The notes under the pieces are model-generated. The model did no database searches, was not told the DNA's origin, and saw only the letters and a program-made list of their open reading frames with translations. 64,000 nt of DNA, from contig CAVQLX010000006.1 of the NCBI GenBank assembly GCA_963713495.1, positions 59,747-123,746 of the forward strand, in the 5' to 3' direction. Each line of letters starts with the position of its first letter. Positions within the stretch are counted from its first letter, which is position 1. Source of the DNA: an uncultured delta proteobacterium (GTDB lineage: Bacteria; Desulfobacterota; Binatia; DP-6). A program made the position numbers and the translations under genes. Positions 1,866 to 59,761 of the stretch are shown here, piece by piece.

Positions 1866-2903
1866 ATGGCAGCGGCACTGCACGAAGGACCTCGCTTACG
1901 TCGCCTGACCTCGTGTGCAGATAGGTGCTTTCGAAAACGGGCAATCGTCCTCCACGTCTATCACCCCACTGCCCTTTCCGTAAAGGGCGCAGCGCACAAC
2001 CGAGCGGGCGGTTACCTGGAGGGTCTCCCGGACGGAGCGCAGTGCGGGAACTTCTGCGAGAACAGCTCGTGCCAGGCCGGTGCGTGTGTGGGGAACCCGG
2101 GCATCCACCCGTGTGGATCGGCCGACCTGTGCGACCCGACCTCGACAACGCCGTGCAAGGAATGTGGAGACGGTACGCGGCAGCCATGGGAGCAGTGCGA
2201 CGACGGAAATACCGACGACGACGATGGGTGTACCTCGAGCTGCAAGTTCTCCTGTGATCCGCAGGATCCCGTGGCGTCGTGCGGCCAGGTGATGCTGCCA
2301 ACAGGAGCGCCCGATCCGTGCCAGCGGAGCGCGTGTCAGCCTGTCGACATCAGCCCGGCCATCGAGGCCGAGGGTTTCACCTGCACAACGATCGCCGAGT
2401 GCGACAGCTGTGTGAGCGACTCGGGATGTCTGCCACCGTCGGACACCTGCGAGAACGTGCACTGCGAAGCGAACAAGTGCGTGACCCGGAGCAAGGTCGA
2501 CTTCTCGCTCGCCACGTGTGCGTTCTCCGACCCTTTCCCGGGCGACGAGCTATCGACGGATGCACATGATTGCGCGCAGTTTGCGGCTGCGAACGAGAGC
2601 GCGTGCGGCCCGACGGGCTCCCTGAACAAGCCGCGCGCGCTCTGCAAGCTGTGGAAGCTCGAAGGAGCCGCGCGGAGTCTTCTCCAGAACTCGTGCAGCG
2701 CCGACGGCACGAAGCCGAAGGCCAGCGTCATGAAACGAATCGTCCGTCCGCTCAGACAGGCCATCTTCCAGGCCAACGCGCTGCGGACGCCGTTCAAGCC
2801 GAGGATCACGCAGGACTGCTCGGACGCCCTGATCCACCGCTTCGAGCGGATGCTGACGAACCTCCGCGGCGCCAAGACGTCTGCGTGGAGCTGCTCGTCC
2901 TGA
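1866..2903 (+). CDS. Cysteine-rich repeat protein (Myxococcus-type CGDG..C-DDGN..DGC repeat). Its C-terminus carries the shared helical C-terminal module described in the findings. No signal peptide is visible, so the N-terminus may be truncated or the start shifted.
   Basis: Motif CKECGDGTRQPWEQCDDGNTDDDDGCTSSCKF plus further Cys-rich segments. The tail ...NSCSADGTKPKASVMKRIVRPLRQAIF...ITQDCSDALIHRFERMLTNL aligns with the tails of the genes ending at 23524 and 54271. Confidence 0.45.
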   Translation: MAAALHEGPRLRRLTSCADRCFRKRAIVLHVYHPTALSVKGAAHNRAGGYLEGLPDGAQCGNFCENSSCQAGACVGNPGIHPCGSADLCDPTSTTPCKECGDGTRQPWEQCDDGNTDDDDGCTSSCKFSCDPQDPVASCGQVMLPTGAPDPCQRSACQPVDISPAIEAEGFTCTTIAECDSCVSDSGCLPPSDTCENVHCEANKCVTRSKVDFSLATCAFSDPFPGDELSTDAHDCAQFAAANESACGPTGSLNKPRALCKLWKLEGAARSLLQNSCSADGTKPKASVMKRIVRPLRQAIFQANALRTPFKPRITQDCSDALIHRFERMLTNLRGAKTSAWSCSS

Positions 2904-6890: not shown

Positions 6891-7739
6891 TCACTCCTTG
6901 TGCCCATTGTACGCGACGTCGCCGTGTGGACTGTAGGAGAGCGCCGGCGGCTGCTTCGTCAGCTCGAGATGGAACGAGGTGTCGTCACCGACGCTCTGGA
7001 TTCCTTCGCCGACCCGCGTCAGCTCGACCTCGACCGTGTCCAGTCGCTCGTAGTCGGAGGTGATGCGAACACGGCGCGGGCTCACCTTGACGACCGTGAC
7101 CGTCACGTCCGATCTGCTGCTGCCCTTGGCGTCGGACGTGACCTCGCCATGGTAGACGCCGCTCGCGAGATCGGCGAGATCGACATGGCCGGCGGCCGGG
7201 CCTGGTACCTGCGCCGGCCGTCGCAGGAACAACGCTGCGCCCAGCCCGAGCACGACCACCGCGAGGACGCCGCCGAGGAGGAGCCCGCGTCTCGACATCT
7301 GCCGCGGCGTCCGGGCCGTCGGCACCTGCCGTGACGAGGGCGCAGACGTCCGCCCGACTCGGTCGGCGATGCCCGCGCAGAGAGCCTGGAAGCCCTCGTG
7401 CGGCGTGTCGCCGGTCCAGTCGGCGAGGTCCACCGTCTGCTTGCGCCGGAACTCCAGCGGCAGCCTGACGCGGTCGATCGATGCGGGGACGAGGACGTCG
7501 CGCTCTGCCGCGGCCGCGGCTTCGTTCTTCACCCACTCCGACGTGACCGAGCTCCTGGACCAGAGCACGACGACGCTCCTGGCGGTCTCGAGCTCGCGCT
7601 CGATGGCCTCGTCGAACGCGTGGCCGGCGACGATCTTCCGATCCCACCACACCGACCAGCCGGCTGCCTCGAGCGACCGGGCAAGGGTGGCAGCTCGCTC
7701 GCGGTCCTCGTTCGCGTAGCTGAGAAAGACGTCCGTCAC
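6891..7739 (-). CDS. TIR-domain protein with one transmembrane helix and a ~110-aa extracytoplasmic C-terminal domain
   Basis: The N-terminus (M)TDVFLSYANEDRERAATLARSLEAAGWSVWWDRKIVAGHAFDEAIERELETARSVVVLWSRSSVTSEWVKNEAAAAAERDVLVP is a bacterial TIR (TIR_2) signature. The hydrophobic stretch RRGLLLGGVLAVVVLGLGAALFLRR follows, then a beta-rich tail. The start codon is GTG with no obvious Shine-Dalgarno. Confidence 0.7.
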   Translation of the reverse strand: MTDVFLSYANEDRERAATLARSLEAAGWSVWWDRKIVAGHAFDEAIERELETARSVVVLWSRSSVTSEWVKNEAAAAAERDVLVPASIDRVRLPLEFRRKQTVDLADWTGDTPHEGFQALCAGIADRVGRTSAPSSRQVPTARTPRQMSRRGLLLGGVLAVVVLGLGAALFLRRPAQVPGPAAGHVDLADLASGVYHGEVTSDAKGSSRSDVTVTVVKVSPRRVRITSDYERLDTVEVELTRVGEGIQSVGDDTSFHLELTKQPPALSYSPHGDVAYNGHKE

Positions 7740-7925
7740 GGCGCGCGATGTTCATCCGTCGCCGAGCCCGGCGCAAGGCACCGGAACGAACGGTAGGACC
7801 GTCGACCGACGTCGTGTGCTCCGCCTGCTGAGTCCGAGGGCGCACGAATCTCCTTGACCGTTCGGTTCGCCGCGCGAAGCTGACTCAAAGTGCTCGACTG
7901 ACGAGGCGAGCGCCGGGGCGGGCAG

Positions 7926-12000: not shown

Positions 12001-12138
12001 ACATGGCGGCGGTCCACCCGCTCGGACGCATCGGCGAGGTGGGAGAGACGTCCGACGCCGTGCTCTACCTTGCGCGCGCGGCGTTCGTCACCGGAACGAC
12101 GCTCGCCGTGGACGGAGGATATTCCCGTGGGCGCTGAG
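12001..12138 (+). pseudogene. Orphan C-terminal tail of a short-chain dehydrogenase
   Basis: MAAVHPLGRIGEVGETSDAVLYLARAAFVTGTTLAVDGGYSRGR* is the canonical SDR C-terminus. No upstream Rossmann portion is present. Confidence 0.4.
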
Positions 12139-12146
12139 GCGTCCGC

Positions 12147-13115
12147 TCACTCGAGGAGCCGCATGTGTCCCTCGTCGTTCAGCGTCTTCGCGAACGACGG
12201 CTCGTACGCGAGCTCCGGCGCCTGGCGGACCAACCGGTCGAGAGCCTGCGCATCCTGTCCGACCAGCACGCGCCAGGTGTCGGTGCGGACGCCCTCGAGG
12301 ATCGTCGACGCCGCCTGCGCCGCCGAGGTCGGTGCATGATCGCGAAAGGCGAGCGCCATCTGGTGCATCGCGGCGCGAAGCTGGTCGTCGGTCATGGCAT
12401 CCGCCGGGAGGCCGCGCCGGACCAGCATCGCACGGATCGTCGCGACGTCCTCGGCCGATGCGGACAGCGCATCGGCTTTGCCGAGCACCTTGGGCGAGTT
12501 GAGCAGGATCGACGTCCCGACGTGTCCGGGCATGACCAGCACGGCCTTCACGTGCGGGGCGTTCAGCCGCAGGTCGGTGATCAGGGCCTCGGTGAACCCC
12601 TTCACGGCGAACTTGGCGCTGCTGTACGCCGTGTGCGACACGCTCGGCCCGAGCGACGCCCAGAATCCGTTCACGCTGCTGGTGTTGATGATGCAGCCCT
12701 CGTCGCTGGCGACGAGCAAGGGCAAGAAGGCCCGCGCACAGTAGTACACGCCGGACCAGCAGACGTTGAACGTGCGCTCCCACTCGGCGCGGTCGCCGTT
12801 CACGAAGCTCCCGCCTCCGCCGATCCCGGCGTTGTTGAAGAGCAGGTTGATGTGCTTGGTCGCGTGCGCCGTCACGACCGCGTCGCGAAACGCCAGCACC
12901 TGGGCCTCGACGGACACGTCGCACGCGTGGGTCGTGACCCGTGCGCCGGCGCAGGCCACGCCTTCGGCCAGACGCTTCGTCTCGCTCATGTTCTCGGTCG
13001 AGACGTCGCAGATCGCCACGTGACAACCCTCGGCGGCGAGCTGCGTGGTGAGCTCGCGTCCCATTCCCGTGCCGCCGCCGGTGACGACGGCCAGTTTCCC
13101 GCGGAAGGTCTTCAT
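12147..13115 (-). CDS. Short-chain dehydrogenase/reductase (SDR) family oxidoreductase
   Basis: [21 protein letters not shown] (TGxxxGxG) ... NNAG ... S-Y-K triad region YSSAKFAV. Confidence 0.8.
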
Positions 13116-23523: not shown

Positions 23524-24907
23524 CTAGAGCTGCTTCCTGAGCGTCTTCAGGTCGTCGAGAATCGGCCCGGCGTCCGCCAGCAGCGCCGCGCGGGTGTCCG
23601 CGGGGATGTTCTTGCGCGAGCGCAGCGACCGCAGGCGATGATCGAAGTCGATCAGCTTGCGGGCCGCTTTCTTGAGGGCGTTGCTGGCGGGCTTCTTCCG
23701 GCCAGCCGTGACGGAGTCATCGGCCGCCTGTGTCTTCGACCGTGCGGCCGCCACGCCGTTGCGCAGCGCGGTCTTGGTGGTGCCCAGGTCCGACGCCGCG
23801 TCGACCGTCGCCAGCAGCGCTTCCAGCCGGCAGATGATCGACGCGAAGGTGGCCGCCCGGACGCCGCACCCCGATGCCAGCGTCGTGGTCGTCGTGGTGC
23901 TGGTCGGGTGTCGTCGTGGTGGTGATCGTGGTCGTCGTGCTCGCGGTCGTCGATGGAGGCGGGAAGCCCGCGCCGCCGATCTGGACGATCGAGTTTGCTG
24001 GATCGCCGCGGAAGGTGGCGACGAAGAAGTCGTTGGTCCTGGGATCGAACTCGAGTCCCCATGGTCCGACGCCGAGTCCCGAGGCGAAGCGGCTGTCGGT
24101 GGGATTGGCAGTGCCGAGCGTCGGCAGTCCACTCGTCTTGTCCACCGGCAGACCGGTGGCGGCGTCGATGGTGAGCAGACGCACCTCGCCGAAGTTGTAG
24201 TTGACGTACATCAGGTTGCCCGCGAGCGGACCGGACGGAACGTACTGGATGGCCCCGGTCCCCTGCTGCGGCAGGGTCACGAACAGGGTCACGGCGCCGG
24301 GGGTGAAGATGCCCGCACCGGCGGACGTGAGCGGCACCTCGTAGAGGTTCGCACCTTGCCACGAGCTGACCTGCATCATCCCGAAGCCGGTTCCGGGATC
24401 GGTGCGGTGCGGGGAGAAGGTCATGCCCGCGACCGACGACGGAACGCCGACGGTCCCCATGTTGAACTGCGTCTCTGCGCCCGTGACCCCGCCCGGTCGC
24501 TCGCCGAGGCGATTGGACGACCAGTACGTGTAGAAGAGCGTCCCGCCCGGGCCGATCTCGAACCCGGCATCGAGACCGGGCGTGGCGGCCGTTCCGTCGA
24601 AGACCTTGGTCACCGCGGCGGCGGGACCGAGGCCCGTCACGTCGCCGGTCAGCGGGTCGCGTGTCACCGGAACTCCGTAGAGCGCGCTCGTCGGCGTTTC
24701 CGACGCGCCGACCACGTAGAGCAGGTTGCCATCCGCCGAGAAGAGGAGGCCGGCGAGTGGCCCCGGGATCCCGAGCGACGTCGCGCTGAAGGTGTTCTTC
24801 ACCTGGAAGTTGCCGGGGTCGTCCAGGGTGACGACGGCGAGGGCGGGGGCTGCGGCGGCGCAAATGGCGAAGGACAGGACCGCGCGGAGGGGGTGTGCAA
24901 TCGACAT
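23524..24907 (-). CDS. Secreted beta-rich protein, Thr-rich linker, then the shared helical C-terminal module (one frameshift in the linker)
   Basis: Signal peptide MSIAHPLRAVLSFAICAAAAPALA. The linker PPPSTTASTTTTITTTTTP is followed, after a frame change, by TTTTTTLASGCGVRAATFASIICRLEALLATV...GRKKPASNALKKAARKLIDFDHRLRSL...LKTLRKQL*. Confidence 0.6.
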
Positions 24908-27136: not shown

Positions 27137-27182
27137 AAACTGTTTGCCTTGCACGGCCTGCGTCGGCTAGGTCGACGACGCG

Positions 27183-28202
27183 ATGAGGGCTCCCGGCTGG
27201 TTGCTGAGTCTCGTGTGCGTGTTGGGACTGCGCACGCTTGCGACCGCACAGGGGATGCCCGACCTCCGTCTCGACACCGACTTGCTGGCCTCGTCGGTGA
27301 ACTACGACCTCCAGGTCTTCGACCCGCAAAGCTGCGAGCTCCAGGCCGCGGACCTCTGCGTGGCGGGGCCCGGCGTGCGGAAGCTGCTGCGCTTCAGCGT
27401 GTTCGCGATCAACCAGGGCACGGCCGATCTCGTCGTCGGGACGCCGGACCCGTCGATCCTGCTTCCGGACGGCTCGCCCGAGTGGGTCTATAGCTCGTGC
27501 CACAAGCACTTCCACTTCCAGACCTTCGCGCGCTACGAGCTCCGCCCCCGCGGTTCCGCGAACGCCGTGCTGCTGGGCCAGAAGCGGTCGTTCTGCATCG
27601 AGGACACGAAGAGGGCCTCCGACAGCGCACCGGACACGCCCCGATTCGGCTGCAATCCGAACGGCCTCAACGTCCAGGGCGTGCAGGTCGGCTGGGGCGA
27701 TCTCTACGCCAGCAGTCTTCCCTGCCAGTGGATCGACATCACCGACCTGCCGACGACCGGCGACTTCGATCTGTGTGTCACCATCAACACCGCAGGCCTG
27801 CTCCCCGAGATCGACGCCAGCAACGACCGCGGCTGCGTCCCGGTAACGATCGCCGAGCCCGCCGATACGACGCTGCCCAGGCTGGCCGTGCTGGCGCCGC
27901 ACAAGAAGAAGGTTCGCGCCGGCAAGCGCCTGAAGATCGCCTGGCGCAAGCACGTCAAGGGCAAGTTCCGCTTCATCGAGGTCCTGTTCTCGCGCGATCA
28001 CGGCGAGACCTGGGAATACGTGACCGCGACGCCGGAGACGAAGCGCAATGCATTCGTCTGGACGGTCCCCAGCGATGCCGTCACCGACGAGGCGCGGTTG
28101 CGTGTCGTGCTGTGGGCGGAGGCGGACGGAGTCCCGGACACGGACGCGGGCGCGTTCGTGCACGCCACCCGCGACAGCAAGCCGTTCCGTATCATTCCCT
28201 GA
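27183..28202 (+). CDS. Lysyl-oxidase (LOX) family copper amine oxidase homologue, secreted, with a C-terminal Ig-like domain
   Basis: Signal peptide MRAPGWLLSLVCVLGLRTLATAQG. SSCHKHFHFQTFARYEL matches the LOX copper-binding H-x-H-x-H segment and LTQ region. Confidence 0.7.
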   Translation: MRAPGWLLSLVCVLGLRTLATAQGMPDLRLDTDLLASSVNYDLQVFDPQSCELQAADLCVAGPGVRKLLRFSVFAINQGTADLVVGTPDPSILLPDGSPEWVYSSCHKHFHFQTFARYELRPRGSANAVLLGQKRSFCIEDTKRASDSAPDTPRFGCNPNGLNVQGVQVGWGDLYASSLPCQWIDITDLPTTGDFDLCVTINTAGLLPEIDASNDRGCVPVTIAEPADTTLPRLAVLAPHKKKVRAGKRLKIAWRKHVKGKFRFIEVLFSRDHGETWEYVTATPETKRNAFVWTVPSDAVTDEARLRVVLWAEADGVPDTDAGAFVHATRDSKPFRIIP

Positions 28203-28868: not shown

Positions 28869-30297
28869 ATGATGCGCGGCTTGCTGCTCCTGGTCTTCCT
28901 TGTCCTGCCTGCACTCCCGGTCGTTCACGCGGCCGATCAGACCGTCCGTGGGAGCACGCTGATCGTCAAGGACCCCGGCACGGACGCCAAACGCAAGATC
29001 ACCGTCAAGGCGAAGGAAGCCGCGAGCGACAACACGCTGGTCGGCGACCCGACCGTGAGCGGCGCGAGCATCACGATCACCGCCACTGGCGCGACGCCGA
29101 CCAGCCAGACGTTCACGCTGCCGGCGGGCACGAGCGCCATGACCCAGAAGCCATTCTGGAGCGGCGATGCGGTGAAGGGGTTCAAGTACAAGGACGGGAA
29201 GGGCGAGAACGGCGCCGTGAAGACGGCCCAGATCAAGCTCAAGGGCGGGACCTTCCAGATCAAGGTCTCCATCAACGGCAAGGGCGGCCCGGTGGACGTG
29301 GTGCCGCCGAATCCCGGCTCGGCCGGCTGCGCGTTCCTCGCCATCGGTGGGGGAGACACGTACAGCGTCCAGTTCGCGCCCGGTCAGGTGACGAACAAGG
29401 GGGCGGGTCTCTTCAAGGTCGCGAAGCCGAGCGGCGAGGGGTCGTGCGCGCCGACCACGACCACGATCACCAGCACGTCCACGACGACGACCACCCTGGA
29501 CCTGCCATTCATCCCGCCGCCCGGCGACGCGCCGCTGCGCTACCGTGACGCGGTGTTCGCCGCGGTGACCACCACCAGCAACATCGTCTACGGAAGCGCG
29601 ATGAACATCGCGGGTCAGACCATCACGCTACAGTTCGATTTCTACGAGCCCACCGGCGACTCGGTGACACAGCGTCCCGCCATCATCTGGGTGCACGGCG
29701 GCTCGTTCTCCTCGGGCGACAAGACCTCGCCAGAGCTGGTGGACGAGGCGAACACGTTCGCGAAGGAAGGGTACGTGAACGCGTCGATCAACTATCGCCT
29801 GGAACCCGGAGGATGCACCGCCTCCGCGCCGACCGCGAACTGCATCACCGCGATCCAGGAGGCGCTGGCGGATGCACAGACCGCGGTGCGCTTCCTGCGC
29901 ACGAACGCGGCGACCTACGGCATCGACCCGGGTCGCATCGCGATCGGCGGCTCGAGTGCCGGCGCGATCACGGCGCTCCACGTGGGGTTCCGCTCCAGCG
30001 AGGATCCGAGCGCGGCGGTCGGTGCCGCGGTGTCCCTCTCGGGCGCGTCTCTGCTCGTCACGATCGACGGTGGCGACGCGCCGAGCCTGCTGTTCCACGG
30101 CACGGCGGACACCGATCGTGCCGTATCAGTGGGCGGTGAATACCTACAACGCGGCGCTCGCCGCAGGCCTCGACTCGTTCCTCACGTCCTGGGCCGGCGC
30201 AGGGCACGTTCCGTACGTGCAGCACCGTACCGAGATTCTCGATCAGACCACGAACTTCCTGTACTGGGAGCTCGATCTGGCGAACGCGGCGCACTGA
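28869..30297 (+). CDS. Secreted alpha/beta-hydrolase-fold esterase/lipase with an N-terminal Lys/Gly-rich beta-domain and a Thr-rich linker (one frameshift near 30115)
   Basis: Signal peptide MMRGLLLLVFLVLPALPVVHA. N-domain ...FKYKDGKGENGAVKTAQIKLKGGTFQIKVSINGKGG; linker TTTTITSTSTTTTT. Esterase blocks HGGSFSSGD and GGSSAGA, with HGTAD / PYVQH in the shifted frame. Confidence 0.65.
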
Positions 30298-30356: not shown

Positions 30357-32913
30357 TCATCCCGCGATGCGCGCGAGAACGCGCTTCGGCTCGCCGACGT
30401 TCATCTCGCCCGACCGGATGCGCACGAGTCCATCGTGGGTGGGGACCCACCCTGGCCGGGCGTCGAGCTCCTCCTCCGTCGCCCGCCGGACGAGAGGCCG
30501 GCCGTTCAGCGTGACGGCGGTCACCTCCGCGCCGCACGTGGCGAGCTCGATCACGGTATCCCGCCGGCCGGGGGCGCCCGCGTACGACCCGCGCACCGGC
30601 TCGATCGTGATCGCGATGCCGTCGTGCGTCCGTCGCTGCCGGACCGTGGTGGTGCGTACGGCGCCGCCGAGGTACGCCGTGGTCTCGCCGTCGTCCTCGT
30701 AGAGCGTGAAGCGGCTCCTGCTGCTCGACGAGGCCGGGTCGCCGGCATAGACGCGGACCGTCAGCTCGTCGCGAGGGGACCCGCCCCGACGTTTGCCGAG
30801 CGCGTTCAACGTGTCGTCGTCGACCGCCGCCTCGGGGATGATGGCGCCCGCGCGCGCGAAGAGCGGCACCGCGAAGAGCCCGCCGATCCGCGTCGGCACG
30901 CCGCGCACCCACTCCCCCGCACTGCGCGTGCAGGTGTTGGCGTGGAAGTCGATCCACGTGCCCGCCGGAAGGTACACGTCGCGCGACGCCTGGCCGTATG
31001 CGCTCACCGTCGCCACGAGCAGGTCGCGCCCGAGCAGCTTCTCGTCTGCCATCCGGCGCACCTCGGGATCGTCCGGGTAGGAGAGCGGAAGCGGCGGCAC
31101 AAGCGCGTCGCCGTAGCGATGCGCCCGGTGGGCCAGGGAGTACAGGTATGGGATCAGGCGGTAGCGCAGGCGGAGGTTCTCCCTGTTGCTCGCGACCTCG
31201 CCGATGCGATCGGGCGCCGTCTCGTTGCAGTTGCAGAGGTTCTGGGTGTGGGGGCGGAGCGGCACGTCGAGGAGGGCGGCGTTGGCGAACCAGACCGTGT
31301 ACATCTCGTTCAGGTCGCCATCGAGTGCGCTCCGCCAGTAGCCGCCGACGTCCGCTCCGAAGTAGTCGATTCCCGAGAAGGCCATGTGCATCTGCACGTC
31401 GAGCTGCGTCGCGAGGCTCGAGAGGTTCGAGCCGATGTCCCCCGACCACATGCCGGCACCGAAGCGCTGGATGCCGGCGGTCCCCGAGCGCGACAGCATG
31501 AACGGTCGTTGCGTGTCGTGGTGGCGCGCGTACCCGCGCGCGATGCTCGCGAGCCACTCCAGGTTGTACGCGTCGTGCACGTCCTGATGGGCGCGCAGCC
31601 CGAGCCGGGGGAACCCGTGGTAGCGGGCGTCGGGAGAGAAGTCCTCCGGCTCCCCGAGATCGGCCCAGTGACCGAGGATCCCCATCTCGACGAGGGGCTG
31701 GCGCTTCCGATCGTGCCAGTAGTTTCCCGCGGCGGGGTTGGTCCAGTCGAGCATGCTGCCGCTTCCCCACCACGAGGCGACGCGCACCGGGCCGCATCCG
31801 GCACACGCCTGCGGCAGATAGCCACGCGACGCGAGCGCCGCGAAATCGGGCCGGCTGGCATCGACGTACGGCTCCTCGATCAGCATCAGGCCGACGCCCT
31901 CGTTCCTGCGCAGTCGCGCGATCTCGCGCCTGGGACGCGGGAACGCGGTCGTATCCCACCTGAGCGCTCCCATGTGCGACGGCCGGCGGAACACGCCGCC
32001 GAACCACTGCAGATCGAGCATGAAGCCGTCGACCGGAAAGCGATTCGCACGCAGCGTGCGTAGCTTGTCCTCGAGCTCCGCCCAGCCGTCGAACCCGAAC
32101 TCCGACACCCAGAGACCGAACGCTTTCTTCGGCGGCACGGGCGGTCGGCCCACGAGACGCATGTAGCGGCGACGGAGCGCCGTGGGCGCCGCCCCGGCGA
32201 GCAGATACCCGCGGATGGCGTCGCCCGCCATCGTCACCCGCCAGGGATCGCCGGTGAGATCCCACGTCTGCGCGTCGAGCTGGTCGACGAACAGGGCGTA
32301 GCTCTCGCCCGCGCCGCCGAGGGCGTACAGGATCGGAAACTGCGCGTTCTCGGTGAAGCCGCCGTTGAACGGGGTGAGCGCGTTGCCCGCCTCGGTGCCG
32401 GGCGCGACGATCTTGCCGAGCAGGTCGCCGTTGGCGGTGCCGGGTGTCAGGAAGTGCTCCCCGAGGCCGTAGACGTGCTGCGTATCCGCCCGCGCCACCG
32501 CGAGGACGTTACGACCACCGCCGACGGCGGCCGGGCAGAGCGTGGTGACCGGGGAGGGCGGCTCGCGCGTCCGATCCGCCACGTCGAGGCACAGCGTCGT
32601 GGGATCGATCCGGAGGCGGAGGATCCCGGTGTCCAACGTGTCGGATCGGACGAGGCGCTTCGCTCCGCTGCGCCCCGGGTGCAGGACCATCGGCGTCGTG
32701 GGAATCCACGCGTCGCGGAGACGGCGGTTCGCCTCCGGGCGCGAACTCGAAGTGGATCACGCCGTCGTCGAGGACCTCGACGGCGACGTGCGCGTCGCGG
32801 GAGGCGACCGCGAGCACCGGCACGTCGTGTGCGGCCCCGGCGAGCGACGCGAGCCACGCCGGTGCGGAGACGATGAGAGCCAGCGCCGCGATCAGGGCGC
32901 GGTCGGTTGGCAT
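30357..32913 (-). CDS. Glycoside hydrolase family 31 (alpha-glucosidase/alpha-xylosidase-like), secreted, with one frameshift near 32700
   Basis: Signal peptide MPTDRALIAALALIVSAPAWLASLAGA in the 32913 frame. GH31 blocks DGFMLDLQWF, GVGLMLIEEPYV and GMWSGDIGSN. Confidence 0.8.
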
Positions 32914-33483: not shown

Positions 33484-34512
33484 CCCGTCGTCGCGACACA
33501 ACCCGCAGCTGCAGGTCAGCTTCCTGCAAGGCGGTGCGTGTTCGACACGGTGTCGTTCCAGGACATCGGAACGGTCGACATCGTCCCGGAGATCGGGATC
33601 ACCAGCACGCCGGTGATCGATGACACGACCGGGACGATGTACGTAGTCGCTAAGACTAAGGAGGGCGCGGTTGCATTATGTGCATCGCCTGCACGCTCTC
33701 GACATCGCGACCGGCGAGGAGAAGTTCGGCGGCTCGGTGGTGATCGAGGCGACAGTTCCCGGGATCGGGAGACGGCAGCGATGGAACCACGCTCCCGTTC
33801 GATCAGCGCAAGCAGAACCAGCGTGCCGGCCTCACGCTCGCGAACGGCATCGTATACATAGGCTGGTCGGCTCACGGCACCAACGGGCTGTATCACGGCT
33901 GGCTGATGGGATACGATGCGCACACGCTGGCCCAGGTCGCGGTCTTCAACTCGACGCCGAACGGACACAGCGGCGGCATCTGGCAAGCCGGCAGCCCGCC
34001 CGCGGTCGACGCCGACAGCAATAGATGAGTAGAGCGCGAGGAAAGTCACAGAAAAGAGACTGCCCACCAGCACGACCATCGCACCGAGCACGACGACCAC
34101 GAGCACGACGCTGGCCACCTGCTCGCCGGCCGGCTGCGATGACCGCGGGCCATGCATGCCGGGAACGTGCGTCGACGGGGTCTGCCAGTACGCGCCGGTG
34201 AGCGGCACGGCCTGCGCCACGATCACGCTCGACCAGATCCGGGGGCTGGTTGACGGCGCCTCCGCGGACGCGTTCAAGAGCAGGTCGACGCGGCGGAAGC
34301 TCGCAGGGAGGCTGCGTCACCTGACCAACCTTGTCGACAATGCCAGCCGCGTTGATGCCCGTGCGCCGCAGGCGAGGCGACGGGTCGAGAGGGCCCTCTC
34401 GAGCCTGGCACGGTTCGTCGATCGGGCCGCCACGCATCACCGGATCGACGGCGGCCTCGCTGGCAGTGTCGGCAGTCTCGCCACCGCAGCCCAGTCGGCG
34501 CTCGGTACGTGA
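33484..34512 (+). pseudogene. Remnant of a secreted beta-propeller protein (no N-terminus, frame-disrupted) that retains a Thr-rich linker and an intact copy of the shared C-terminal module
   Basis: Propeller fragments [36 protein letters not shown] / [26 protein letters not shown] / [33 protein letters not shown] lie in different frames and begin immediately after the stop of the 33007 gene. Then comes LPTSTTIAPSTTTTSTTLATCSPAGC...ACATITLDQIRGLVDGA...RRKLAGRLRHLTNLV...*. Confidence 0.45.
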
Positions 34513-52927: not shown

Positions 52928-54271
52928 GTGTTCACCACCCCACGCCTCCTCGCGATCGTCGTGGTCGCGATCACCTGCTCATCCGGAACATCGCGCGCGT
53001 CCGTCGAGTACGAGGCGTCCGCCGGCTGGAGTGTCGGCGACGAGGGATATTCGCTGAAGCAGCAGTTCTCGCCCCCTGTGATCGCCGGCTTCGGCGGCGA
53101 CTTCAGCCGCCACGGGGCGCTCTGTCCCGATCCCGGGACGCACGACTTCCTCTGCATGCGGGCCGGCAGCGAAGCGGGACTGGTGGGCCCGCCGGGTAAG
53201 GGTGGCTTGCTCACGTTGCGAGCCGAGGCACGGCTCACCCGGCACGACGGTGTCGGCCTGGGCAACGAGGAGATCGTGTACGGGGAAGCGCGCGCCAGTG
53301 TGTTTGGAATCGGCACCGTCGCCGTACCGGATTCGGGGTTCGTCGTGTTCAACTTCGGGCTCAGCGGCATCGTCTCGGCCTCGGCCTCGAGCGCGTCGCT
53401 CGCCGCGCAGGCGACCGGCGTGGCAACACTCTACGCGGACAAGGCCTACGGGATCCAGTGCTTCGGCTATCCCTGTCCAGGCATCCCGCTTCGGTTCGAC
53501 AAGGCGGATCCGAACGCCTCCTTCAAGTTCGACGGGTTCCTCATCGATCTCCGCGCCGACGTTCGTGACAAGCCGCCGCTGGGGTTCGGCGGCTGGGACG
53601 ACGAGATGATCGCCGACTTCCACGACACCCTCGTGCTGCTCTCCATCGAGGTGCAGGACGACAATCATCAGACGGTGCCGGGCGCGTCGGTCTTCCTGGA
53701 GAGCTACGACAACATGGGCACCCCGCTCCCGATATCGAACGAACCACCGCCACCTCCCGTCACCACGACGACCACGACGAACCCGGGTCAGACGACGACC
53801 ACCACCGTGCCCGGCACCGAGACGGCCACCACCAGCACGACCACCGTGTTTCCCGTCGCGACGACCACGACGACCAGCGCGCCGCCGGGCGGCTGCGATC
53901 TCGACGCTCCCACGTTCGCCTCGATCGGCTGCAGACTCGATGGTCTCCTCGTCCGGATCGCGAGCGAGACGTCGCTCGGCGACTACCGGCAGAAGCTGCC
54001 GCCACCCCTCGCAGGCGCCGCCGCGCGGCTCGACGAGGCCGCGCAGTCGTGCGGTGCGGGTGACGCGAAGCGCGCCGGCAAGAAGATCAAGCAGGCGGCC
54101 CACCGGCTCGTGCAGTATGCCCACGGCCTGAATGGTCGGCGTGCGCATCGGCGGCTGCCCGCCGCCCTGCGCGAGGAGCTGGTCGCCCGCGGCAATGACA
54201 TCCATGCCGCCGTGACGATCCTGCGCAAGACCGTGCACTGCCCGGAGGACGCTCCCGCGCAGCCGAAGTGA
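52928..54271 (+). CDS. Secreted lipoprotein: novel N-domain, long Thr-rich linker, then the shared helical C-terminal module
   Basis: GTG start with (V)FTTPRLLAIVVVAITCSSG lipobox. The linker PPPPVTTTTTTNPGQTTTTTVPGTETATTSTTTVFPVATTTTTSAPPGG is followed by CDLDAPTFASIGCRLDGLLVRIA...SCGAGDAKRAGKKIKQAAHRLVQ...LPAALREELVARGNDIHAAVTILRKTVHC. Confidence 0.6.
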   Translation: MFTTPRLLAIVVVAITCSSGTSRASVEYEASAGWSVGDEGYSLKQQFSPPVIAGFGGDFSRHGALCPDPGTHDFLCMRAGSEAGLVGPPGKGGLLTLRAEARLTRHDGVGLGNEEIVYGEARASVFGIGTVAVPDSGFVVFNFGLSGIVSASASSASLAAQATGVATLYADKAYGIQCFGYPCPGIPLRFDKADPNASFKFDGFLIDLRADVRDKPPLGFGGWDDEMIADFHDTLVLLSIEVQDDNHQTVPGASVFLESYDNMGTPLPISNEPPPPPVTTTTTTNPGQTTTTTVPGTETATTSTTTVFPVATTTTTSAPPGGCDLDAPTFASIGCRLDGLLVRIASETSLGDYRQKLPPPLAGAAARLDEAAQSCGAGDAKRAGKKIKQAAHRLVQYAHGLNGRRAHRRLPAALREELVARGNDIHAAVTILRKTVHCPEDAPAQPK

Positions 54272-54375: not shown

Positions 54376-55742
54376 GTGGAGTGCGAGACGCGGTACGCGA
54401 AGAACGGCGACGTCCACATCGCGTACCAGGTCCTCGGAGACGCCCCGCTCGACCTCGTCTTCGTGCCCGCGTTCGTGTCGAACCTCGAGGTGGCCTGGGA
54501 AGAGCCGTCCCTTGCCCGCTTCTACCGGCGCCTGGCGTCCTTCTCGCGGCTGATCCTGATCGACAAGCGGGGAACGGGACTGTCCGACCGCGTGCCGGCG
54601 GATGCACTCCCGACGCTCGAGGAACGGATGGACGACATTCGGGCGGTGATGGATGCGGTGGGCAGCCAGCGGGCCGCGATCTACGGTTCGTCGGAAGGGG
54701 GGCCGCTCGCACGTCCTCTTCGCCACGACGTTCCCCGAGCGAACGACCGCCCTCGTGCTGTACGGCTCGTACCCGCGGGCTGCGATCGCTCCGGACTATC
54801 CAGCACGGCACCGATGCGGAGTCGTTCGAGGCGTACCTTGCCTCGATCGAGCAGGGATGGGGGCAAGCGCTGTCGCTCCCGGTGTTCGGGCCAAGCGTCG
54901 CCAACGACGATCGCTTCGTCCAGTGGTATGGACGGCTCGAACGCCAGTCGGCCAGCCCCGCTGCCGCGCTGGCGCTCATGCGCATGAACTCGCAGATCGA
55001 TGTGCGGCCGTTGCTCGAATCGGTGCGTGTCCCCACGCTCGTCATCTACCGCGGCGGCGAGTACTTCGCCCACGTCGAGGGCAGCCGCTATCTCGCGGAG
55101 CACATCCCCGGCGCCAAGCAGGTCGAGCTGCCGGGAGACGACTTCCTGCCGTGGGTCGGCGATCAGGACGCTCTCCTGGACGAGATCGAGGAGTTCCTCA
55201 CCGGCGCGCGAGTCGGCGGCCACTCCTCCGACCGCGTGCTCGCCACGGTACTGTTCACCGACATCATGGGCTCGACCGAGAAAGCTGCCGAGCTCGGGAG
55301 ATCGCCGCTGGCGAAACCTCCTCGACGACTACTACGACGCCGCGCGGCGGGAGATAGAGCGGTCGCGAGGTCGGATGGTGAAAACGCTCGGCGACGGCAT
55401 CCTCGCGACGTTCGACGGGCCGGCGCGCGCGGTCCGCTGTGCCTCCGTGCTTCGGCAGACGGTCGAGCACCTGGGCATCCGGATCCGCACGGGACTCCAT
55501 ACCGGCGAGTGCGAGCGGATGGGTGACGATGTGGGGGGCATCGCCGTCCACATCGGTGCCCGGGTGGCGGCGCAGGCTGCTCCCGATGAGGTGCTCGTTT
55601 CCAGCACCGTGAAGGACCTGGTCGCGGGCTCGGGCCTGCGCTTCGTGGATCGGGCACGTATCACCTGCACGGAGTGCCCGGGGAATGGCGCCTCTTCGCC
55701 GCCGAGGGAATCGCCAGCCAGGGTCGGCCACTCCCGCGCTGA
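54376..55742 (+). CDS. Alpha/beta-hydrolase plus class III adenylate/guanylate cyclase fusion protein, with three or more frameshifts
   Basis: The AB-hydrolase N-part is (GDVHIAYQVLGD..., IYGSSEGG / LLFATTFPERTTALVLYG in shifted frames). The cyclase core is LATVLFTDIMGSTE...RMVKTLGDGILATF...IRTGLHTGECE...GIAVHIGARV and ends GTYHLHGVPGEWRLFAAEG in another frame. Confidence 0.7.
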
Positions 55743-55781
55743 CCTCCGTCGAGTCGGTCGGAGCGCGCCCAGGGACCGAGG

Positions 55782-55950
55782 CTAGGGCGACGTCAGCAGG
55801 GCTTGCACCGTCCCGCGCAGTCCTCCGAGCGGCTCCTCCAGGGCGCTGCATGTCTCGTCGGACAGGGTGCTCTGCGCTTTCTTCGAACCGAGGAGCTTGC
55901 CGTAGGCGGCGAGGCTCTTGCCGGCCTTCCGGAGCGCGGCGCGCGGCGGC
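55782..55950 (-). pseudogene. Orphan ~50-aa tail of the shared C-terminal module, with no start codon
   Basis: AALRKAGKSLAAYGKLLGSKKAQSTLSDETCSALEEPLGGLRGTVQALLTSP* aligns with the tails ITQDCSDALIHRFERMLTNL (2903 gene) and KRAGKKIKQAAHRLVQ...LPAALREELVA (54271 gene). Confidence 0.3.
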
Positions 55951-55984
55951 TGCGCTCTTGATTCGCATCGTCAGCTTGGCGGCG

Positions 55985-56967
55985 TCAGTCGTCCTCGGCC
56001 GCGGCCGGGGCGCCGCCCATCTTGGCGACGTCGTCCTTGCGCACCTTCGACGGATCGATCTTCCTGGCCGAAGCCGTGAGCTTCTCGATCGTGTCGTCGA
56101 AGTCGAACGTCCCGTCCTTCTTGAAGCGCAGGAAGTTCACCCGCGCGACGACGTAGTACTTGAGATACGGGCTCACGAGCCCGTGCGCCTTCAACGCCTC
56201 GACCACCTTCACCACCTCGTCGTCGAGCCGGAGCAATCGGTCGGCGCGCGACTCGCGCAGGCGCAGGCCGTCCTCGACGGCGACGTCCTGGAAGGACTCG
56301 AGCCGCTTGACGATGGAGCTGTAGGCGCCGGCGGAGAAGCGTGGACGCTTCTCGTACGCGGCGCCGAAGGTGATGAAGTGGGGCTCCTCGAAGATCGCCG
56401 CGAGCTCGGTCTCCGTCGCGCTCCCGCGCGCGCCCACGAGGCCACGATACATGCGGATCACCTCGAGCGAGCGCTCCTTCAGGTTGTGCGCCTTCTCCGT
56501 GTTGAGCGCGAGGATCTGCAGCGCGACGTCCTCGTCGGGCAGGACGAGCGCCGTGATCGACTTCATGCCCATCAGGGTCATCGCGCCGAGCCGGTGATTG
56601 CCGTTCGGCGTCCAGTAGGTCCCGTTCCGGCGCACGGCGATGAGCGGATCGAGGAACCGGCCGACGCGATCCATCGCGTTGGCCAGCTTCTTCACGTGCG
56701 CCTCGCTGCGATCGCGCTGGTAGGGAGTCGGCTCGACCTTCTCGATCGGCAGCGCCGCCACCACGACCGGCTGACCCCCGAGCGGATCGCGGTACATGCC
56801 GATCACCTCGCCGCCGTCGGCCCTGATCGTCTCCGCAAACCGGCGGGCATCGTCCGGGACGTCCACGATCTCGGCGACCGTGAGCCCCTTGCTGCTGGCC
56901 GGTTGTCTCTTGCGCGCCGGCTTGCGCTTCCTGGTGGAGGGCGTCCGCGACGTCTTCGTGGGCATGC
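55985..56967 (-). CDS. ParB/Srx-fold (ParB-like nuclease) N-terminal domain protein with a C-terminal domain of unknown function
   Basis: VVVAALPIEKVEPTPYQRDRSEAHVKKLANAMDRVGRFLDPLIAVRRNGTYWTPNGNHRLGAM matches the ParB/sulfiredoxin core (PxPxQxR ... DGxHR). The ~200-aa C-terminal part has no recognisable motif. Confidence 0.6.
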
Positions 56968-57000
56968 CTGTCTGCATAGCATGCCACGGAGGGGTGACGC

Positions 57001-57408
57001 GGGCATCACCGGGAGCGGAGGCGGTGGCGGTGGCGTGATGATCCTGGCCTCGCGCGGTGCCGTCTCGACGCTGGCCCCGCCAGCACACGTGCGATCGGCG
57101 GCGTCGGAGCGGACAGCACGGCGTTGGATGGAGCGGGTGGCGGTGGCGGCGGTGGCATCGTGCACCTCGTCGCCCCGACGATCGTGAGTGACGGAGCGGT
57201 GACGGTGGACGGCGGCGCCGCCGGCGCAGCCGGCGCGGCGGCATCGGTCACCTCGAATCCTCGGTCCGCGGGCGGTGGGGGCGGCGCCAGCGGCGGCAAC
57301 GGTGGGAGCGGCGGCTCCGTCAGCACCGCCGGGACCCCGGGCCCCGCGCAGTCGGGCGCGGCGGGGTACTTCCTGCTGACCCACGCCGACCCGACGGCTC
57401 TTTTCTAG
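57001..57408 (+). CDS. Orphan glycine-rich ORF, probably a fragment of a Gly-rich repeat protein
   Basis: Two frames give GSGGGGGGVMILASRGAVSTLAP and GAGGGGGGGIVHLVAPTIVSDGAVTVDGGAAG...GGGGGASGGNGGSGGS. No convincing start or ribosome-binding site. Confidence 0.2.
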   Translation, partial: GHHRERRRWRWRDDPGLARCRLDAGPASTRAIGGVGADSTALDGAGGGGGGGIVHLVAPTIVSDGAVTVDGGAAGAAGAAASVTSNPRSAGGGGGASGGNGGSGGSVSTAGTPGPAQSGAAGYFLLTHADPTALF

Positions 57409-59022: not shown

Positions 59023-59761
59023 TCACCCGACGATCGCCGAGGGCGGAACGGGCTCTCCGAACGCGCCGCGGTTCCACGACCGCAGAACGTCGCACGGCGA
59101 TCGGGGTCCAGGTGTCAGGGCTCGGATCGTGGCCACCCATCGGTCGAGCTGCTCGCGGAGATGGCGCTCGATGGGGAGCTGGTGGTCGGCGGGATGCCGA
59201 CCTCGCTCGCCAGCTGCTTCCAGCAGTTGCGCACGTGCCCGAACACGATCTCGCAATCCACCCCGCAGTCGCCGGCGCGCCGGAACGTCCGGCAGAGCGT
59301 GTGCTGGATCGCCAGCACCGGATCTCGACGTCCGCCGCGCCGTCGGGTGGGCCGCAACGACCCCGAACCTGTGCACGGCGCGTCGTGTCGCGAGGAGCTC
59401 GGATGCCGGGCATTGCCCACCGCCCGCGATGTCGTTGAGCAGGGTATTCTGCCACTGGACCAACCTCACGGTCGCGCCTCTCACGCTGCCGTTGCAGAGC
59501 GTCCCGGCACGCGCGAAGGTTCTGCTCCATCGCTGCGCTGGCCCGTGCGAGGCATGCCGGGTCTGCCGGGATGCCCCGCCGCTTCGCACGCGCATGACAG
59601 CGCAGGGTGGCGATCAGATCGCGGCCGGCGGCGCGGAGCTTCATGGCGCTGCACCGCGCGGGTGTGAGCTGAACCTCCGCCATCGACGGCCCGAGTGGAA
59701 GGAGAACGATGGAGACTGCGAGCAGTAGCGTTCGACACCGCCGAGGGTTTCGAGAGGGCAT
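59023..59761 (-). CDS. Secreted Cys-containing hypothetical protein (one frameshift)
   Basis: AGGAGG lies 7 nt upstream of the ATG. Signal peptide MPSRNPRRCRTLLLAVSIVLLPLGPSMA. The body is split between the 59761 and 59595 frames. Confidence 0.45.

Follow-up and report, generated by a model that had tools for sequence, protein, structure and literature searches.

The window is a stretch of 64,000 nucleotides from an uncultured delta proteobacterium (GTDB lineage Bacteria; Desulfobacterota; Binatia; DP-6). It spans forward-strand positions 59,747 to 123,746 of contig CAVQLX010000006.1 in assembly GCA_963713495.1. It contains a gene at 52928-54271, here gene D, that ends in a cysteine-containing helical module of about 115 residues. 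The original prediction held that this module recurs at the extreme C terminus of unrelated secreted proteins in the window, in four full copies (A to D) and one orphan tail (E). The recurrence proved real. D and B align far above chance (z = 25.5), and the family to which they belong has 689 cluster representatives. The copies and their associated features are given below.

52928..54271, plus strand: gene D, intact; 447 codons with a GTG start, a signal peptide, an N-terminal domain, a linker, and the module
53744..53887, plus strand: Pro/Thr-rich linker of D (residues 273 to 320, PPPPPVTTTTTT...TTTTTSAPP)
53894..54268, plus strand: module copy D, four-Cys subtype (profile E = 1.5e-39)
23527..23868, minus strand: module copy B, two-Cys subtype (profile E = 3.5e-37), 34% identical to D
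23906..23908, minus strand: one-base surplus in a CCC run between the cargo and module frames of B, read from the sequence
23909..24907, minus strand: cargo of B, with a Sec signal peptide (MSIAHPLRAVLSFAICAAAAPALA), a beta-rich domain, and a poly-Thr linker from 23962
55785..55970, minus strand: orphan half-module E, helices 3 and 4 only, with no start codon (profile E = 1.8e-5)
34063..34509, plus strand: copy C (probable, divergent); its poly-Thr linker starts at 34063, and a small stretch rich in Cys and a helical tail (34207-34509) come after it
2559..2900, plus strand: copy A (possible, divergent), a helical tail with Cys that ends the open reading frame (ORF) at 1866-2903

The signal peptide of gene D contains a lipobox-like VVAITC, with Cys17 at 52976 and Thr at position -1. 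D may be a lipoprotein, as judged from this imperfect lipobox. Its N-terminal domain had no family match in Pfam or NCBIfam. The orthologue P0005 is 75% identical to D over 449 residues and has the same start and the lipobox VVAIAC. The Cys codons of the D module are at 53894, 53930, 54050, and 54239. Its predicted helices span gene D residues 329 to 345, 352 to 375, 379 to 408, and 411 to 434 (model numbering plus 311). The sequence most closely related to D (92% identity in the module) is found on a 196-kb European Nucleotide Archive (ENA) contig. That contig is syntenic with the window from 49.8 to 64 kb, and orphan E is also present there.

Copy B does not contain Cys3 or the C-terminal CPxDA of the larger subtype. 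It ends in ...LKTLRKQL. The module is read in the frame of 23524-24210 (minus strand), which differs from the frame of the cargo ORF at 23717-24907. Deleting one C from the CCC run joins the two. The surplus base is either a frameshift or an assembly indel. The beta-rich domain of the cargo had no family match in Pfam. The B module and that of P0004, which has an unrelated YWTD propeller as cargo, are 76% identical.

The five proposed copies were compared pairwise by Smith-Waterman alignment with 500 shuffles each. D and B scored 165 against a shuffle mean of 30, with 34% identity over 113 residues, and at the level of sequence they are unambiguous homologues. The B-E (z = 4.9) and A-B (z = 3.1) pairs were weaker. 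Copy C scored indistinguishably from chance against every other copy. A profile of B and D was then run exhaustively with HMMER against 1.84 billion cluster representatives, of which 689 matched at E <= 1e-3 and 309 at E <= 1e-10. The 152 best matches were used to build a second profile, which was run on the six-frame translation of the window. This profile placed D and B in the family at the E values given above. It also matched E over profile positions 53 to 108 only, which correspond to helices 3 and 4. Copy C appeared only at E = 0.34, and copy A was not listed, so neither was placed in the family by this search. The similarity is thus significant in a profile alignment for D, B, and E.

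More sensitive comparisons were made for the remaining copies. With hhalign and a 32-sequence module alignment as the target, P was 1e-5 for E, 0.022 for C, 0.05 for A alone, and 0.0099 for A with its three orthologues. The expected register was kept in every one of these alignments. In phmmer searches of 172 family proteins, with 60 shuffles, A reached 12.4 bits against a shuffle maximum of 9.0. C reached 13.0 bits against 12.3, a narrow margin. Matches of at least 8 bits numbered 38 for E, 6 for A (shuffle maximum, 2), and 8 for C (shuffle maximum, 3). A deeper profile for A was sought by a word-indexed homologue search of its tail, which returned three close orthologues only. The same kind of search with D also gave three matches, all close orthologues. 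With the module alignment as the query it gave 31 matches, all annotated as hypothetical protein and dominated by poly-Thr words.

The original count of four full copies was not upheld. Two full copies, D and B, and half-copy E are certain from these sequence comparisons. A and C are marginal (hhalign P from 0.0099 to 0.05). C is probably a divergent copy, and A is possibly one. It is also conceivable, if somewhat improbable, that part of the recurrence is an artefact, with B, D, and E as the sole related copies. A and C would then be unrelated basic helical C-terminal tails with a compositional resemblance to the family. The failure of both in the profile search is what such tails would give, as are their hhalign probabilities of just 1 to 4% and the small excess of C over its shuffles. 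The correct register of both alignments argues the other way, as do the counts of family matches, which exceed any shuffle for A and for C. Copy C also has the diagnostic poly-Thr-Leu-x-x-Cys lead-in. The tail of A has its Cys3 on the family Cys3 and is predicted as a four-helix unit that matches the same bundle structures. The original coordinates fell in the right places, and some were out of frame. The statement that three of the copies (B, C, and D) follow a poly-Thr linker was correct.

Copy C is located in 34033-34512 on the plus strand. It has the family lead-in, a poly-Thr run followed by Leu-x-x-Cys. Upstream of it are coding fragments at about 33520-34025 that are spread over three frames and include an internal stop. 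They had been taken for a decayed beta-propeller. Pfam found nothing on these fragments, and the propeller identity was not confirmed.

Copy A is the tail of an ORF whose N-terminal part is a myxo_disulf_rpt/DUF4215 Cys-rich repeat. It has no poly-Thr linker. The Cys in NSCSADG aligns with family Cys3, and another Cys is found three residues before the end. The four helices of the tail are predicted with low confidence (predicted local distance difference test [pLDDT], 69.7). At the start listed for it, the ORF shows no clear signal peptide. The first 4,000 positions of the window, which include this gene, have a guanine-plus-cytosine (GC) content of 65%, compared with about 70% for the rest.

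Orphan E directly follows the stop of a ParB-like gene at 55985-57244 (minus strand). The ParB-N-like assignment of that gene is a weak match (E = 0.009). E is also found in a related contig, L001, at 12057-12362, and the junction with the ParB-like gene is kept there. The truncation is common to two assemblies and is therefore probably real. Because the junction is conserved, it is older than the split between the two. Frame breaks also affect several unrelated genes of the window, each of them spread over two to four frames; the cyclase-like gene at 54376-55785 (plus strand) is one. The D orthologue in L001 (9830-10660) is broken too. The apparent decay of genes in the window may therefore be largely due to assembly indels rather than to pseudogenisation. 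These breaks suggest a long-read assembly that is prone to indels, and its apparent pseudogenes need caution.

The module is well supported as a real, large, and previously undescribed family of extracytoplasmic domains that is restricted to one lineage. In nearly all of the 152 matches examined it forms the extreme C terminus, with a median of 2 residues between it and the stop codon. A poly-Thr linker, taken as 5 or more Thr among the 30 residues that precede the module, is present in 122 of the 128 members with enough upstream sequence. The consensus begins with C-x(5-9)-[PA]-T-F-x-S-I-x-C-R-L-x-A-L ... L-G ... K-L. It continues with A-E-x-x-C-x-A-G-x-x-K ... L-K-K-A-x-R-x-L-I-Q-Y-x-H-R-L-R-S-x-x-A-R-K-x-I-P-x-x-x-R and closes with D-x-x-T-L-R-x-x-L-x-C-P-x-D-A. 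The terminus is either an acidic to neutral CPxDA plus 0 to 6 residues or LRKQL. We found nothing that describes the module in the literature on secreted proteins of Binatia (Binatota) or on helical C-terminal sorting domains.

The D module was modelled with AlphaFold2 from the 32-sequence alignment. The model is an up-down four-helix bundle with a pLDDT of 90.5 and a predicted template modelling score (pTM) of 0.81, a confident result that agrees with the helical module first proposed. Cys1 lies just before helix 1, and Cys2 lies in the invariant S-I-x-C-R-L. The larger subtype also has Cys3, at the turn between helices 2 and 3, and Cys4, in the terminal C-P-x-D-A. These two occur together in 116 members, are missing together from 37, and are discordant in 2. 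This co-variation points to a Cys3-Cys4 disulfide and, by exclusion, to a Cys1-Cys2 staple. The sequences thus support a bundle that would be stapled by one disulfide in the two-Cys subtype and by two in the four-Cys subtype. Both subtypes occur in the window, with four Cys in D and two in B, and the two-Cys subtype also does not contain CPxDA. The disulfide pattern implies an oxidising compartment.

The module is strongly basic. Median values are 10.3 for the isoelectric point and +10 for the net charge. About +9 of this charge is on the turn and helix 3, whereas the remaining helices are roughly uncharged overall. No transmembrane segment was found in the module and tail of 172 proteins, in which the 18-residue Kyte-Doolittle mean had a maximum of 1.83 and a median of 0.95.

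The module is carried by many kinds of exported protein. Among 76 full-length members searched with Pfam, the right-handed beta-helix families were the commonest cargo (Beta_helix, 10; Chlam_PMP, 7; NosD, 5). Other cargos were Laminin_G_3 (5), PPC, TSP_3, PKD, Ig, and several propellers. An N-terminal Sec-type hydrophobic signal region is present in 53 of 85 long members, and 6 of those 53 have a lipobox-like motif. About 21 of the 172 family proteins are complete and minimal, consisting of a signal peptide, poly-Thr, and the module only. A further minimal protein of this kind is encoded at L004, a Binatia locus. Pairs of modules up to 80% identical are found on cargos without detectable similarity. 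These pairs, and that of B with P0004, indicate that the module is independently mobile.

A poly-Thr linker also occurs in a gene of the window that has no module. The gene is at 28869-30100 (plus strand). Its product has a signal peptide, an N-terminal domain without classification, a poly-Thr stretch encoded at about 29454-29510, and a part that resembles an esterase. Poly-Thr linkers are thus general in the exported proteins of this organism. The listed ORF at 28869, of 1,064 residues, runs far past the plausible gene. It overlaps a GH31-like gene on the minus strand at 30357-32690.

Genomes and metagenomes were scanned for loci with the 9-residue pattern [PA]TFASI[DG]CR, and the taxonomic range obtained is a lower bound. 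Three loci were confirmed in 185,579 species genomes, all in metagenome-assembled genomes of Candidatus Binatia. Public metagenome records gave 37 loci, all at 66 to 76% GC. The window has a GC content of about 70%. Clustering of plausible ORFs from 41 loci and the window gave no recurrent neighbour. It returned only antisense shadows and the synteny between the window and L001. A co-occurring protease or transpeptidase had been proposed as a check on the sorting idea. None adjoined the module in the 41 loci. The majority of these contigs are short, and enzymes of this kind are seldom linked to the genes of their substrates. The genes that flank the copies in the window are ordinary and encode alpha/beta hydrolase, adenylate-cyclase-like, ParB-like, sulfatase, GH31, and phospholipase C-like proteins.

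The statement that the module matches no described domain or sorting tag was borne out by Pfam and NCBIfam at curated thresholds and by PDB sequences. No family for the module reached threshold when Pfam and NCBIfam were run on the five window proteins, the 76 full-length members, and 32 isolated modules. A search of PDB sequences with the profile returned designed helical repeats only (E of about 1e-4), which we take as a coincidental helix-turn-helix similarity. At E <= 0.001, Foldseek found no match in the PDB. Its weaker matches were generic for the fold, to plant pectin methylesterase inhibitors (PMEI) and to the C-terminal bundle of a GH92 enzyme. The sole recurrent weak signal was from FIMAH (PF22888), which was below threshold in 7 of 32 module sequences with a best E of 0.0018. 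The FIMAH gathering score of 24.8 bits was never reached. B scored 16.6 bits (E = 0.012) over the second half of the model only. The FIMAH model has 81 positions, compared with about 115 residues in the module. A distant relationship to FIMAH is possible from these sequence matches.

The predicted fold of the module, an up-down four-helix bundle with predicted disulfides, is also the fold of PMEI. Plant PMEI (PDB 1x8z, 1xg2_B, and 1rj1) are likewise extracytoplasmic. Foldseek matches of the module to PMEI structures had an E of 0.16 or worse. PMEI (PF04043) gave no Pfam match at E <= 1 in the 5 window proteins and 32 modules, and there was no PDB sequence match. The PMEI bridge joins helix 2 and helix 3. 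The Cys3-Cys4 link of the module differs from it and would run from the helix 2/3 turn to the C-terminal tail. PMEI are free-standing or form N-terminal PRO regions in plants, whereas the module is found on many cargos that are not beta-helices.

The secreted GH92 mannosidase NnGH92 (PDB 7nsn) has an extreme C-terminal four-helix bundle (FHB) to which no function was assigned (PMC10167667). When the FHB was deleted, the amount of enzyme on insoluble yeast cell wall fell by about 50% (PMC10167667). Like the module, the FHB is a four-helix bundle at the extreme C terminus of a secreted multidomain protein. Unlike the module, it is described with no mention of a TFxSIxCRL motif, a cysteine pattern, or a poly-Thr linker (PMC10167667).

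The known sorting tags differ from the module in size and fold. Tripartite tags consist of a motif, a transmembrane helix, and a basic cytoplasmic tail. MYXO-CTERM has this layout of a short signature motif, a transmembrane helix, and a basic tail (PMC11980579). LPXTG, PEP-CTERM, MYXO-CTERM, GlyGly-CTERM, and PGF-CTERM resemble the module in their extreme C-terminal position and their frequent Ser/Thr-rich linkers. They are also lineage specific with many paralogous carriers per genome, and MYXO-CTERM has a conserved Cys. These tags are short and membrane spanning, whereas the module is about 115 residues long, folded, and soluble, with no hydrophobic helix. It has neither the length of such a tag (25 to 40 residues) nor its terminal Arg/Lys cluster. 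A transmembrane-type tag of the sortase, exosortase, myxosortase, or rhombosortase class is contradicted by these features, and no NCBIfam sorting-signal model matched the module.

Two folded C-terminal modules were also considered. The C-terminal domain (CTD) of the type IX secretion system (T9SS; Por_Secre_tail) is a beta-sandwich of about 80 to 100 residues. Like the module, it is a folded nonmembrane domain at the C terminus of many unrelated secreted proteins of one lineage. The T9SS CTD models (TIGR04183/TIGR04131) gave no NCBIfam match at E <= 1 and no Pfam match, and the AlphaFold2 model is all helical. The module is therefore no T9SS CTD. Dockerins have about 70 residues, duplicated Ca-binding loop-helix motifs, and a cohesin partner. 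They share with the module a small helical C-terminal form, Pro/Thr linkers, diverse cargo, gene shuffling, and similarity within a genome. Dockerin (PF00404) gave no Pfam match, four long helices are predicted for the module, and no cohesin-like partner was identified.

The best explanation is that the module is a shared noncovalent docking or retention or adhesion module, to which we give a probability of about 40%. It would most likely be a functional analogue of dockerins, S-layer homology (SLH) domains, and C-terminal binding modules. The carrier would be exported by Sec, and the disulfides of the module would form in the periplasm. The basic face of the bundle would then bind an anionic component of the envelope or matrix (lipopolysaccharide, exopolysaccharide, or peptidoglycan) or a dedicated receptor. 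The variable N-terminal domains would thereby be held at the cell surface or in the matrix. In the minimal proteins, only the probably glycosylated Thr stalk would be displayed. These cargo-less proteins and the lack of a membrane segment favour docking over a cleaved sorting tag. The contribution of the NnGH92 FHB to cell-wall binding is a precedent (PMC10167667).

Several points weigh against docking. The survey of 41 loci turned up no conserved neighbour of the module. D, if it is a lipoprotein, is already anchored at its N terminus, and a second anchor may be less obvious. The basic charge could have other roles, such as binding to nucleic acids or membranes or recognition for export. The taxonomic restriction depends on the narrow 9-residue search pattern. 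An anchoring role remains plausible.

A folded C-terminal export or sorting signal like the T9SS CTD is an unlikely alternative. The bundle would be recognised by an outer-membrane translocon specific to Binatia. As a further step, it might be removed and the cargo covalently attached to a surface glycan. The strict extreme C-terminal position, the Thr-rich linker, the many unrelated cargos, the several copies per genome region, the lineage restriction, and the near-identical modules on different cargo would all suit such a signal. These features are also typical of CTD-type signals. No machinery or sortase-like gene lies near the 41 loci, though linkage is not required. Two divergent subtypes (34% identity) occur in one genome, and a disulfide-stapled, stable-looking bundle is unusual for a translocation signal. 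The minimal proteins, with a Thr stalk as their sole cargo, are easier to reconcile with a self-sufficient docking or anchoring domain than with an export tag that is removed.

The most novel proposal is that the module is the recognition and attachment element of a surface-display system specific to Binatia. A single dedicated receptor or translocon would dock or export dozens of proteins per genome by way of the bundle on a glycosylated poly-Thr stalk. We consider this improbable at present. If it is true, the system would be a new class of C-terminal sorting or anchoring in diderms, apart from the transmembrane tags and the T9SS CTD.

Oligomerisation and PMEI-like autoinhibition are less likely than docking. 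In the first, bundles would associate or swap helices to form multivalent assemblies of adhesins or enzymes on flexible stalks. Helical bundles commonly mediate oligomerisation, the stalk with a terminal knob would suit such assemblies, and stand-alone versions exist. The predicted bundle is a closed monomer, and its charge of about +10, concentrated on one helix, disfavours self-association without a counter-ion or partner. Oligomerisation is quite doubtful on this evidence. An intramolecular inhibitor or chaperone is very improbable. The bundle would fold back onto the N-terminal domain and silence it up to cleavage of the linker, much as pectin methylesterase is controlled by plant PMEI and PRO regions. 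Beta-helix families are the commonest cargo and PMEI are likewise disulfide-stabilised four-helix bundles, but Pfam gave no PMEI match, the Cys3-Cys4 link is not the PMEI bridge, and the same module is found on propellers, LamG, and PKD or with no cargo.

Binatia are abundant uncultured bacteria of soil and sediment. We know of no account of their cell-surface biology. One module on hundreds of exported beta-helix, propeller, and lectin-like proteins marks the surface or secreted proteome of Binatia. The hidden Markov model, the confident structural model, and the testable basic face offer a handle on what the carriers attach to. If the module is a docking or sorting device, it would be a structurally new type among bacterial C-terminal targeting modules. 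If it is an accessory binding domain only, it would still be a clean new family for Pfam or NCBIfam and a possible functional analogue of the unexplained C-terminal helical bundles of secreted glycosidases. At present the finding is moderately interesting, and the discovery of a dedicated partner system would make it highly so.

Two other genes of the window were recorded. The gene at 27171-28199 (plus strand) encodes a homologue of bacterial lysyl oxidase (PF01186, E = 1.2e-25) with a signal-peptide-like N terminus. The gene at 6894-7751 (minus strand) codes for a protein with a TIR_2 domain (E = 4.5e-25), behind which there may be a transmembrane segment.

A second C-terminal motif, ASPSGAF[LVH]D, was seen in related loci. 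It forms the extreme C terminus of a few module proteins and of unrelated small Cys-rich secreted ORFs that adjoin module genes. It might be a separate lineage-specific C-terminal tag. It is present in proteins P0030 and P0055 and at the following sites.

L004, 5488-6357, plus strand
L018, 1042-1191, minus strand
L024, 1426-1965, minus strand
L034, 5231-5707, minus strand

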